From: Thermodesulfobacteriota bacterium
GTDB lineage: Bacteria > Desulfobacterota_D > UBA1144 > Nemesobacterales > Mycalebacteriaceae
Direction of reading: 5' to 3'
NCBI GenBank assembly: GCA_965198945.1
Contig: CBDAQI010000010.1
Span: 1 to 64,000 of the forward strand
DNA length: 64,000 bases
Made by a program: the position numbers. This document shows positions 62,001 to 64,000 of this stretch, piece after piece (position 1 is the first letter of the stretch; every line of letters begins with the position of its first letter).

Positions 62001-64000
62001 CGATTCCCGCAAGCCAGTAGATTACGGTGTCTATGTCGGGCGATATGTGCAGACCGAAAAGTTTTATATCATCCGCGCTGTTGACTATGACGGAAAGTTT
62101 TCCGCAGTTGCGTCTGACAATTTCCGATGACATGCCTTTGAGGAACTTCCCCGCTCCCACACCACCTCCGAGACAGGTAATCATCCACGAAAGCATATAC
62201 AAAAAATGCCTTTGTTTGGGGCTTATATACCGTTTTAGGCAAACAGTAATTTGAACCGGTATTGATGGGCATATTGTTTTGTATGTCTACCAAAAGAAAG
62301 AATATCAGTGTTTACGAGTTCATAAGCAGGGACCCGGATGAGAAGGCGGTTGTTGTTTTCTTTGAATAAAGCCGGTGGGACAGGACCGGGCGTCATTGTC
62401 AGCATTGCGGCGGTTTACGGCCAACCAAAGCCAAGCGGCAGGATGCCGTTTCACTGCAAAGACTGTAGCAAGCATTTCAGTGTTCGCACGGGTTCCGTGT
62501 TTGCGGAGAGCAATCTGCCTCTCAATAAGTGTCTCATGGCGATTTATTCTCTCGCAACCAACCTTAAAGGGATGGCTACGCTGGCTTGAAAAAAGGTTTT
62601 AAGCATATGGCGGTCAGTCACTCTGTGAGTGAGTATATCAAGTGGTTCATACAAACGGGGTTGAACCCTTCTGGTCAATGCTCAAAAGCGGTTATGTCGG
62701 TGTTTATCATCAATTCAGCAATAAGCATTTGCATAAATATGTGGATGAGTTCGCGGGCCGGCACAATCTGCGGACGCTTGGCACAATCAACCAACTGGCG
62801 AAGATTATAGCGAATACCGAAGGCAAACTCCTGAAATGCAGAGAGTTGATTTACGCTCCGACAAGCCAAAACTCATTGAACCGATAAATGCAACTCTTGA
62901 AGATGTGGCAAAGGCTGTGTTTCGGAATAAGAAGCTGAAGAAAAAAGACAGAGTAAGAAAGCCGCCCAATTAAAACGCGGAATCTTCATAAATTTTTCTT
63001 TGTATACGCCGGCCTGCTTGATAATCTCCAACAATGTGCCGACAGGTATTGTTTCTGAGCGATAAGCAGTTAGTCTTTCAATAGCAACTCTACAGGCTTC
63101 CCGCAACATTTCAAAAGCATGATCTGCCGTATCGCCACAACTGGCAACGCCAAAATCAAGACATTGAGAGAAATAATTTTCGCCCTCTTTCCATGAAACC
63201 GCTTTTGTTGTGTCCATTTCTCCTCTGTGTTTTCAAATTGCCGAATAATAGGGAACTTTTGCGGAACTAACAGTGCTTTTTGTCAAAAAGCTTTCCCATA
63301 ACAGTAAAAAGAGTCCCCGATAGTTGTTTACCAAACTAATGAACGAAGGGTATGAAGTTCATTAAATATTGGGGACTCAAAATTCCAAGCATCAAATTAA
63401 GTTGCCAACCAAATCTCCTTGCATACCAGCGCGTGGGCGCCGGGCCTTGCCACTTACTCACTGAAAAGAGAAAGCCTGACTGTTTCCCTGTAAACAGAGT
63501 GTTGTATTGATCAGAGACCCGACAGACGGGTTTCCAGCGAATAAGTGGCGGGAAAACCATAACAGTAAACTTGTAAAATAATCAAGAAGGCGTCTAACAA
63601 AGTATATAAGTCTCCTTTATTTTGTTGGACTTTACGCTTTTTTGCTTATAAAATGAACAAGAGGTTGGGCTTGGCGGGGGTATTATGGGCACGAGCCTGA
63701 AAGAAAACAGAAATTCGTGGTTTGCAAGAATAATTGTGATAGTTCTTGCGATCGCGTTCATTGTGGGTCTGGGATATACGGGCGGCTTTCAGGGAGTGTC
63801 GGGCGGAGTCGCCGCTGAGGTAAACGGCGAGCCCATTCCAATTCAATATTATCATCTCGTAAGAGGGCGGATTTTCAACGAACAGACCAAAAATCTGGAC
63901 AAAATTCCCTTAGAGCTCAGGGAAGCCATAGACAGGGTTTCTCTCGCGTTTCTTATTGACAGAAAACTGCTTGCTCAAGGAGCCCGCTCCCTCGGCTTCA

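Follow-up and report, generated by a model that had tools for sequence, protein, structure and literature searches.

The minus strand at positions 63423-63549 of the window (the whole stretch of 64,000 nucleotides that was analysed) encodes a copy of a real, uncatalogued folded RNA that is found in many marine symbiont bacteria. The locus belongs to an extended branch of the sRNA-Xcc1 superfamily, a structured RNA of 105-150 nt. With moderate confidence, I read this RNA as a two-state translational leader with a self-masked anti-Shine-Dalgarno (anti-SD) strand. The reading draws on the structure of the RNA, the position of its promoter, its association with genes, the covariation of two folds, and a gene-specific complementarity to the ribosome site. 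A first-pass annotation had placed the motif at this site on the minus strand, and both the location and the strand were confirmed.

Distribution of the motif

As had been claimed, the 1.39-Mb genome has six full-length copies of the motif, which were recovered with model R1 (built from 4 copies) together with a weak seventh match of 19.5 bits. The two non-seed copies scored 54 and 37 bits. The window copy, itself part of the R1 seed, scored 114.2 bits with R1 and 87.4 bits with a rebuilt model, R2, over the full length (P1-P4 and the AAGRCCCGRC tail). In the order, R1 gave 74 matches in 31 of 101 genomes (the source genome included; 30 had been reported) from 5 of 26 genera, and none in the 15 genomes of family f2, from which the motif was already thought to be absent. 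R2 found matches in 34 of 120 genomes of the phylum, and the motif is also present in Gammaproteobacteria, Alphaproteobacteria, and Acidobacteriota. Of the sequence-pattern matches, 6 of 20 outside the phylum and 10 of 18 in metagenomes had no R2 match and are chance or divergent sequences. Carriers have one to nine copies per genome, located before functionally related genes. A partial match (L068) and a reverse-strand match (L001) were excluded from the analyses.

Structure and covariation

The helices covary, as the first-pass annotation had held on the strength of 26 of 31 pairs. Among 72 distinct copies, 32 of 34 pairs have both-sided changes, and 96.2% of 2129 cells are paired versus 34-47% with slid partners, in an alignment that was fitted to a covariance model and is thus biased toward structure. 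None of 500 shuffles reached any of the pairing measures. The fifth helix, P5, was assessed separately and also held up: the native partners gave -10.32 kcal/mol and permuted partners -8.92 kcal/mol (p 0.0002, n=85). Since G-U pairs are numerous in the helices and the opposite strand has only one match, of 23 bits, the motif at the window locus is an RNA of the minus strand.

All features of the window copy lie on that strand. The RNA opens with the 19-nt 5′ strand of P1 (63531-63549), whose first base, a G, is the predicted +1; covariation is seen at each of the 19 P1 pairs. The P2 hairpin CCCG-UCUGU-CGGG follows (63518-63530), with 98.9% of cells paired and both-sided changes in two of four pairs. 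Its 3′ side belongs to segment B, GUCGGGUCU (63515-63523), which may alternatively serve as the 5′ strand of a closing helix of the sRNA-Xcc1 type. The conserved core (63475-63515) consists of P3 (UCUGA/UCAGG), the internal loop UCAAUACAACA / GAAACAG, and the P4 hairpin, and is the part common to RF02221, the Rfam family of sRNA-Xcc1. The linker J3/1, CUUUCUC (63468-63474), is able to pair with part of the next element, the 3′ strand of P1 (63449-63467), to form an alternative hairpin 2. In relatives that have an ORF, this P1 3′ strand is the anti-SD strand. Segment C, AGGCCCGGC (63439-63447), contributes the 5′ strand to P5 in the main fold and pairs with segment B in the alternative one. The P5 hairpin CCGGCGC-CCAC-GCGCUGG (63426-63443) completes the structure. 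The helices vary, whereas the nucleotides of the junction and loops are strongly conserved in at least four phyla.

Promoter and downstream genes

A promoter-like site (63556-63585, minus strand) was found 6 nt before the motif, with a -35 element TTGATT (63585-63580), an 18-nt spacer, and a -10 element TATGGT (63561-63556). It is weak in the window copy, scoring 7.5/12 in the promoter scan, and a stricter promoter/terminator scan made no call for it. In the family, sigma-70-like promoters scoring at least 8/12 are found in 57 of 73 copies, versus 13% of shuffles. The -10 box ends exactly 7 nt upstream of the motif in 44 of these 57, and the first base of the motif is G in 68 of the 73 copies. 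The predicted +1 is accordingly the first base of P1, the outer helix, and a leader position close to a promoter, at a fixed distance, is supported for the family.

The claim that an SD site and an ORF for an exported protein follow the motif is likewise supported for the family. In the phylum of the window, an SD-ORF lies within 130 nt in 54 of 73 copies. All 54 scorable ORFs begin with a signal-like segment according to a home-made heuristic rule, which flags 119 of 726 ORFs (16%) of the window genome as background, and 31 of the 54 have a lipobox. The products are from unrelated families (OMP beta-barrel, RTX, YadA head, ankyrin, pilin, and PEGA), and 41 of 52 had no Pfam match. In four other lineages, 11 of 11 ORFs called from 18 copies are signal-bearing, with several more visible by eye. 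Two or three copies before a DNA methylase-HNH gene are the exception to the export rule. Most copies are 25-60 nt from the ORF without a terminator between. Neither a terminator nor an SD-sequestering hairpin of the usual riboswitch kind was seen in the ORF-bearing copies.

The copy in the window

The remaining 19 of the 73 copies have no scorable ORF. These include the window copy and three more of its genome, which agrees with the four of six copies reported before. The role of a leader before an exported-protein gene, proposed for this very locus, is not supported for the window copy. A residual SD-like AAGGAG (63415-63420, minus strand) remains, with no ORF of at least 45 aa found behind it. 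Further downstream on the same strand lies a conserved terminator-like element (63306-63378), an 8-bp stem GAGUCCCC/GGGGACUC that encloses a structured insert and has UUUUU after it. A simple terminator scan made no call on this element because the loop is too large. The element recurs after the copies C10b and C13, so that a terminator-like hairpin ends three copies without an ORF in this genome. The window copy probably gives a non-coding transcript of about 244 nt, from 63549 to about 63306. Having lost its ORF, it represents either a leader that has decayed or an RNA that stands alone.

C10b, a model match at 52162-52303 on the plus strand, is the inverted partner of the window copy; the two are inside an inverted duplication that carries IS1595-like fragments. 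A HicB-like label considered for a 114-aa ORF (62873-63217, minus strand) was dropped, as no Pfam family was matched at E 0.001.

Alternative pairings and the ribosome site

The first-pass annotation proposed two exclusive pairings of CGGG, with CCCG or with CCCGGC. Both are possible and the second one covaries, but the alternative fold (fold B) is less stable than the minimum-energy fold by a mean of 15.3 kcal/mol (sd 4.4, n=41). On that ground, a switch governed simply by equilibrium is implausible unless something drives it strongly. The competing pairing had been regarded as too conserved to covary; instead, compensatory changes were found at four positions, B1-C9, B7-C3, B8-C2, and B9-C1. 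The full set of nine B:C pairs can form in 57 of 73 copies, and the mean is 8.53 pairs versus 8.16 in permuted combinations (p 0.0002; 40 distinct B/C combinations, with B/C parsing having failed for 7 of 96 sequences). The resulting closing helix, GUCGGGUCU/AGGCCCGRC, competes with P1, P2, and P5. Hairpin 2, formed by J3/1 and the P1 3′ strand, has statistical support (native -3.92 versus -2.38 kcal/mol, p 0.0002) but is weak, at about -4 kcal/mol; its control was negative. A pseudoknot with B:C alongside P1 was rejected on geometry, by reasoning and not by computation, since there are only 1-2 nt between the P1 3′ strand and segment C.

The CCCGGC segment had also been placed just before the ribosome site. 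The anti-SD element found here is the P1 3′ strand and not this segment. In the phylum of the window, this strand pairs with its own TIR at -8.78 kcal/mol and with the TIRs of other genes at -7.53 kcal/mol (p 0.0004, n=38), a modest signal of about 1.2 kcal/mol on average that is strong in perhaps a quarter of the members. In other phyla, the values are -13.11 versus -10.39 (p 0.0002, n=23), and the own TIR was the best in its row in 6 of 23 cases. The sequences in these duplex-energy tests are related and not phylogenetically independent; dereplication used an 80% identity threshold on the 5′ strand. Controls with the 5′ strand and with the coding region were negative.

Relationship to sRNA-Xcc1

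The suggested kinship to sRNA-Xcc1 is real in that the core is shared, but the scores of 20-46 bits lie below the family cut-off of 53 bits. At the gathering level, Rfam had no match in the 64-kb window. Under that threshold, the RF02221 model gives the window copy 20 bits, the C6 copy 27.8 bits, and the best of 20 relatives 46.3 bits; the two best RF02221 matches of the whole genome are copies of the motif. In 9 of 20 extended-motif loci, matches of 27-46 bits span the full model (1-87). The Rfam alignment of sRNA-Xcc1 puts the outer helix on segment B, and at L007, the locus where coordinates were compared, the RF02221 match begins at segment B.

The two forms have in common the GUCGGG... 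strand, P3, the internal loop AAUACAAxAC / GGGRAAUA, the P4 hairpin, a 3′ strand CCCGRC followed by ACC, and a site between a promoter and an SD-ORF. Both also have a segment, beyond P3, with complementarity to the downstream gene's ribosome site. The P1 5′ strand, the CCCG segment (P2), and P5 are found only in the extended form and are absent from sRNA-Xcc1. The P1 5′ strand and the CCCG segment re-pair the region that constitutes hairpin 2 and the closing helix in sRNA-Xcc1. The second hairpin region of sRNA-Xcc1, between P3 and the closing helix, corresponds to the P1 3′ strand of the extended form.

The genes differ as well. Those after the extended form are chromosomal and encode exported proteins, whereas those of sRNA-Xcc1 are prophage antirepressors or symE, and the mobile-element context typical of sRNA-Xcc1 (integron cassette or prophage) was not found for the extended motif, judged by its chromosomal downstream genes and by 0 matches of one strict core pattern in viral contigs. 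Canonical sRNA-Xcc1 loci lie before genes of the antirepressor type: 17 of the 34 ORFs there encode a Rha, Bro-N, ORF6N, P22_AR_N, AntA, or KilA-N domain. The complementarity logic is stronger at these loci than in the extended family: the hairpin-2 zone versus the SD zone gave -16.51 versus -9.71 (p 0.0002), best in the row in 15 of 32 cases.

A possible two-state leader and the rival explanations

The two-state leader that I moderately favor would work as follows. Its own sigma-70-type promoter would give an RNA starting at the first base of the long helix P1, and in most members this RNA would serve as 5′ leader to an mRNA whose product is exported (a lipoprotein, an outer-membrane protein, an adhesin, a pilin, or a secreted enzyme). 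The putative leader has an anti-SD strand, namely the P1 3′ strand, complementary to the ribosome-binding region of its own gene; a mask over it, namely the 5′-terminal strand of P1; and the conserved Xcc1 core, with a three-way junction and the AAUAMAAxAC/GGGAAAUA internal loop. Fold A, made of P1, P2, and P5, would keep the 5′ end fully paired and the ribosome site free. Fold B would be the canonical Xcc1 fold with its closing helix and hairpin 2, releasing the 5′ strand and leaving the terminal part of the P1 3′ strand free to cover the ribosome site. Candidate triggers are the binding of a ligand or a protein to the conserved core and the loss or capture of the 5′ strand. The RNA may actually toggle between these folds, and the toggle would set translation and probably also 5′-end-dependent decay.

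A static element might explain part of the data. The paired 5′-terminal helix may simply stabilize the mRNAs of highly expressed surface proteins against 5′-end-dependent decay or enhance their translation, with the core as a folding scaffold or protein-binding site and no switching. The +1 on the first base of a 15-19-bp helix, the 15.3 kcal/mol in favor of fold A, and the lack of a conventional expression platform agree with this fairly unlikely reading, which leaves unexplained the near-invariance of segment C, the B:C covariation, the covarying hairpin 2, and the gene-specific match of the P1 3′ strand, by complementarity, to the ribosome site, which was seen in two independent sets. A small metabolite or second messenger that selects the fold at the junction and loop, as in a classical riboswitch, would account for conserved junction and loop nucleotides among variable helices in at least four phyla and for multiple copies ahead of functionally related genes. 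However, the gene set points to no ligand, P1 is far longer than in known ligand-gated aptamers, and no known riboswitch model in Rfam matches the window or the relatives. This option too has a rather low probability. As for a particular second messenger, c-di-GMP was excluded on the distribution of GGDEF domains, which none of the five motif-bearing genera has (0 of 45 genomes) and the other 21 genera do have; the GEMM-I/II models of c-di-GMP riboswitches had no Rfam match to the motif.

A c4-like antisense RNA, freed from the leader or made alone and acting in trans on matching ribosome sites, much as the c4 RNA of phages P1 and P7 controls antirepressor synthesis, is quite improbable. In the extended family, the antisense strand is buried in a 15-19-bp helix and therefore not exposed. 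P1 differs among the copies of one genome, and therefore each copy could match only its own gene; moreover, most copies are close to their ORF with no terminator between. This reading fits with the canonical loci, whose hairpin 2 covaries with the SD zone before antirepressor-type genes, and with the terminator-like ends of three ORF-less copies in the window genome. It also fits with sRNA-Xcc1 of Xanthomonas, a discrete 88-nt RNA by RACE and Northern blot according to a published report (PMC2996969). A DNA-level element (an attC-like site, a REP/MITE repeat, or the inverted-repeat end of a mobile element) is very improbable. In its favor, sRNA-Xcc1 was first described in integron cassettes, and the window copy and C10b share an inverted duplication with IS1595-like fragments. 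On the other hand, the many G-U pairs would be A-C mismatches on the opposite strand, the fixed-distance promoter is on one strand only, the copies are single and dispersed ahead of genes, and the motif ends GYU...ARC are unlike the attC R''/R' order; no search for an integrase was made. Viral contigs had 0 matches to the core pattern, searched as one strict exact pattern.

A wider reading is offered tentatively and may well be wrong. sRNA-Xcc1 and its relatives would not be orphan trans-acting sRNAs but a single, widespread class of translational switches that are encoded in cis and share a sensor core. The class would gate prophage antirepressors. Its extended, self-masked version would have been recruited, probably horizontally, as a common control over surface and secreted proteins that face the host. 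This would have taken place in symbionts with reduced genomes, sponge-associated and others, from at least four phyla, in lineages without c-di-GMP signalling. In print, sRNA-Xcc1 is treated as a trans-acting sRNA, and the papers from 2025 that were consulted still discuss it as one with a virulence role; a limited literature search found no description of a cis-regulatory sRNA-Xcc1 or of a Dadabacteria RNA motif. If true, this would assign a function, with a mechanism that can be tested, to an RNA family catalogued as an orphan since 2010. In uncultured symbionts, shared post-transcriptional control would then extend over adhesins, ankyrin-repeat proteins, lipoproteins, and secreted enzymes, whose genes are thought to mediate host contact. 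The core conserved across phyla would then be a candidate new sensor RNA.

Comparison with known systems

Co-transcription and P1/P7 specificity are known features of c4 RNA. The c4 RNA of phages P1 and P7 (immI; Rfam C4, RF01695) resembles the motif: it is a structured RNA encoded shortly before the gene under its control, and parts of it are complementary to the ribosome site that follows. The canonical Xcc1 loci likewise precede antirepressor genes. The c4 RNA regulates Ant, according to a published account (PMC8201110). The resemblance does not extend to sequence or model similarity, since RF01695 had no match in the window or the relatives, and unlike in c4, the antisense strand of the extended family is masked within the same RNA. 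The motif also resembles translational riboswitches in which the P1 3′ strand is the anti-SD, with an aptamer-like junction and an alternative partner at the ribosome site. Their P1 is 4-8 bp, whereas that of the motif is 15-19 bp, and the motif encodes a second complete (Xcc1) fold. The 5′ UTR stabilizer of the ompA type is a 5′-terminal stem without a single-stranded overhang on the mRNA of an envelope protein. The motif is likewise a 5′-terminal stem without an overhang on such mRNAs, but unlike the ompA-type hairpin, it has a conserved multi-helix core and covarying alternative pairings.

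Distribution and structure of the RNA

A covariance model (R1) built from four copies of the motif found six full-length copies in the 1.39-Mb, 95%-complete genome to which the window belongs, including two non-seed copies of 54 and 37 bits. Across the order, R1 gave 74 matches in 31 of 101 genomes (own included), representing 5 of 26 genera; no match fell in family f2 (15 genomes). With a rebuilt model (R2), the motif was found phylum-wide in 34 of 120 genomes, and in 0 of 19 of an extra family.

The copy at 63549-63423 on the minus strand (C10a) consists of a 19-bp outer helix (P1), a small hairpin CCCG-loop-CGGG (P2), a P3-P4 arm with the conserved internal loop UCAAUACAACA opposite GAAACAG, and a pyrimidine-rich linker (J3/1) after this arm; 3′ of the P1 closure, AAGGCCCGGC is followed by hairpin P5. 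Among 72 distinct motif sequences, 96.2% of 2129 cells are paired versus 34-47% with slid partners, and no shuffle reached the observed values. Two-sided changes were found in 32 of the 34 pairs, and all 19 pairs of P1 covary. This alignment had been fitted to the model, which biases it towards the structure, but the margin is very large. P5 is supported statistically (p 0.0002, n=85). Since G-U pairs are frequent and reverse-strand matches are lacking, the structure is that of an RNA of the motif's own strand. The copy number, spread and covariation given in the first-pass annotation were thus reproduced.

Promoters and downstream genes

Upstream of 57 of 73 copies lies a sigma-70-like promoter (at least 8 of 12); after shuffling of the upstream DNA, 13% still score as high. 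The distance from the end of the -10 hexamer to the motif is exactly 7 nt for 44 of the 57 promoters, and the first motif base is G in 68 of the 73. Thus, the predicted RNA start is the first base of P1. In 54 of the 73 copies, an ORF preceded by a Shine-Dalgarno (SD) site begins within 130 nt downstream. All of these 54 ORFs have a signal-like N-terminal segment and 31 have a lipobox, while the simple hydrophobicity/lipobox rule used for the calls gave a background of 119 of 726 ORFs (16%) in the window's genome. The proteins are mutually unrelated, and for 41 of 52 there is no Pfam match; the remaining classes comprise OMP beta-barrels, RTX repeats, a YadA-head adhesin, an ankyrin-repeat protein, a prepilin, PEGA, and DUF2085. 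Exceptions include a handful of copies with short or broken ORFs.

Three genomes from the genus of the window have a DNA methylase-HNH fusion (N6_N4_Mtase + HNH) behind the motif, at extracted loci L038:209-1468(-), L016:1644-3011(+), and L060:776-862(+), two copies being intact and one broken. This protein is not exported, and its SD site is absent.

Is the motif confined to this phylum? A core-pattern scan of one genome per species gave 40 loci, and 14 of the 20 loci outside the window's lineage contain 15 full-length matches (28-87 bits). Such matches occur in Candidatus Poriferihabitaceae and Spongiihabitans (Gammaproteobacteria), Parvibaculaceae and another alphaproteobacterium, Candidatus Versatilivoraceae (Acidobacteriota), a sea-cave MAG, and an 8-kb contig labelled Poribacteria (L084). 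Whole-genome searches of five outside-phylum genomes gave 3, 9, 2, 3, and 1 copies. There, a strong promoter lies upstream of the motif and a signal-bearing ORF downstream, with products such as lipoproteins, a trypsin-like protease, thermonucleases, and an OMP. The 11 ORFs called from 18 copies all bear a signal, and more are visible by eye. Thus, the link to exported proteins recurs in independent lineages, and a single family of paralogous genes does not account for it. The earlier claim that the motif precedes exported-protein genes holds for the scorable ORFs inside the phylum (54/54) and beyond it (11/11).

In metagenomes, 8 of 18 pattern matches are full-length members, one of which is clipped by the contig end. 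The strict core pattern gave no match in viral contigs. The 60 nt upstream and the first 110 nt downstream of the L084 motif read identically to a Dadabacteria copy (L054, genome G032), and the motif ends, as far as printed, likewise agree. This contig may be mis-binned or the product of a very recent transfer. In Parvibaculaceae (L094:377-660(+)), a tandem pair of motifs about 60 nt apart lies between a tRNA gene, immediately upstream, and a thermonuclease-like gene.

ORF-less copies in the window

The exported-protein ORF expected behind C10a was not found; an AAGGAG at 63420-63415 (minus strand) has no ORF behind it. The promoter match of this copy is weak (7.5 of 12) and was not called by a separate promoter scan. 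In the whole genome, four of the six copies have no downstream ORF. About 40 nt beyond the AAGGAG begins a conserved terminator-like element (63378-63306, minus strand), in which an 8-bp stem, GAGUCCCC/GGGGACUC, carries a structured insert and is followed by UUUUU. Further copies of the element lie at 52388-52473(+), after the second motif copy in the window (C10b, 52162-52303(+)), and at C13:32308-32404(+) (G000), and a weaker one at C4:45177-45266(-). The element is thus common to three ORF-less motif copies, C10a, C10b, and that on C13, the last being opposite a convergent gene. Since they have this element and no ORF, these three are predicted to be ORF-less transcripts of roughly 240-330 nt. 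The 5′ strand of the element could pair with GGGUCUC in the 3′ side of P2 (segment B), which suggests, as an idea only, a possible antiterminator.

C10a and C10b are inverted partners at the ends of a larger inverted duplication (52162-53566 and 62712-63549). It contains IS1595-like transposase fragments, whose arms (53364-53566 and 62712-62915) are 87-88% alike and about 9.1 kb apart. Downstream of the terminator-like element of C10a, a 114-aa ORF (62873-63217, minus strand) is preceded by a good SD site and matches no Pfam family (E 0.001). Behind another copy in this genome (C1b), an OMP-like gene is split after a 31-codon signal peptide (L004:472-567(-) and 1-318(-)) by a frameshift or an assembly indel, which fits indel errors or recent decay in this assembly.

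Two mutually exclusive folds

In members of the extended family, P3 is followed by the 3′ strand of P1. Segment B can also pair with a segment after P1 (segment C) to form a closing helix (GUCGGGUCU with AGGCCCGRC), and 57 of 73 copies can form all nine pairs. On average, 8.53 pairs can form, versus 8.16 with C permuted (p 0.0002; 40 distinct combinations, 89 parsable sequences). Compensatory changes were found at B1-C9 (G-C to A-U), B7-C3, B8-C2 (C-G to U-A), and B9-C1 (U-A to G-C). Since C1-C3 are unpaired in the main fold (fold A: P1, P2, and P5), their covariation is explained only by the B:C helix. These four positions support the proposed second pairing of CGGG, with a conserved CCCGGC-type segment.

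J3/1 can also pair with the first part of the P1 3′ strand in an alternative hairpin (hairpin 2; native -3.92 versus -2.38, p 0.0002); the 5′-strand control was flat. The P1 3′ strand is also complementary to the translation-initiation region (TIR) of its own gene (native -8.78 versus -7.53, p 0.0004, n=38). J3/1 and the final 10 nt of the strand carry this complementarity; neither the 5′ strand nor the coding region gives a signal in the same set. In other phyla, the values are -13.11 versus -10.39 (p 0.0002, n=23), and the duplexes often span the SD itself (examples, -20.8 and -27.2 kcal/mol). The first bases of the RNA often recur beside the SD, so that the P1 3′ strand is able to pair with either. 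Fold A and the sRNA-Xcc1-like fold closed by the B:C helix (fold B) are both under selection and mutually exclusive.

I lean slightly towards a two-state translational leader. In fold A, the anti-SD strand would be hidden and the 5′ end paired, while in fold B the 5′ strand and the terminal part of the anti-SD strand would be free. The average cost of imposing the B:C helix is 15.3 kcal/mol (sd 4.4, n=41), which makes a plain equilibrium switch unlikely. Fold B would need co-transcriptional kinetic trapping, a tight-binding partner, or a 5′ strand that is lost or captured. The rivals to a two-state leader are a static stabiliser, an antisense RNA released in the manner of c4, and a true ligand riboswitch. 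A putative ligand or protein would most naturally bind at the conserved junction and loop.

As for the signal, c-di-GMP was considered and excluded, since GGDEF domains are missing from exactly the five motif-bearing genera (0 of 45 genomes) and present in all the other 21. This mutual exclusion at the genus level across the order probably tracks a reduced-genome lifestyle.

Kinship to sRNA-Xcc1

No Rfam family matched anywhere in the window at the gathering level. At relaxed thresholds, the only relevant match was sRNA-Xcc1 (RF02221; 20 bits, E 0.82, full model), with its 9-bp closing helix placed on GUCGGGUCU / AGGCCCGGC and its internal loop on that of the motif. The two best RF02221 matches genome-wide (27.8 and 20 bits) are two of the six motif copies. 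Among 20 loci that carry extended copies, RF02221 matched 9 at 27-46 bits, each time along the entire model; in L007, the only locus compared by coordinates, the match begins at segment B. None of the extended copies reached the cut-off of 53 bits; the core of the motif is a distant relative of sRNA-Xcc1, as had been proposed.

sRNA-Xcc1 is an 88-nt RNA which two papers treat as trans-acting (PMC2996969; PMC12189769). A 2025 preprint notes just its location upstream of symE. Searches of one literature library found no cis-regulatory description of sRNA-Xcc1. More than 115 species, from many phyla, contain the canonical core pattern. At the canonical loci (L121-L200, many phyla), a promoter lies upstream of the RNA and an ORF with an SD downstream, and 17 of 34 such ORFs encode antirepressor-type domains (Rha, Bro-N, ORF6N, P22_AR_N, AntA, KilA-N), the gene often being of a prophage antirepressor type. 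A conserved terminator-like sequence (…CCCGAWAG…GCGG, T-run, GTGCC) recurs in distant genera (L126, L127, L151, L153, L171, L196, and others) some 40-70 nt before the canonical core, which suggests a larger conserved mobile module.

It was revealed that the canonical hairpin 2 is complementary to, and covaries with, a zone of its own gene that comprises the SD and the bases immediately before it. The energy is -16.51 kcal/mol against its own SD zone versus -9.71 against those of other loci (p 0.0002). In 15 of 32 cases, the native SD zone outscores all others in its row; the control with coding regions shows almost no difference. Catalogued sRNA-Xcc1 looks like a cis-encoded controller of translation in the style of c4.
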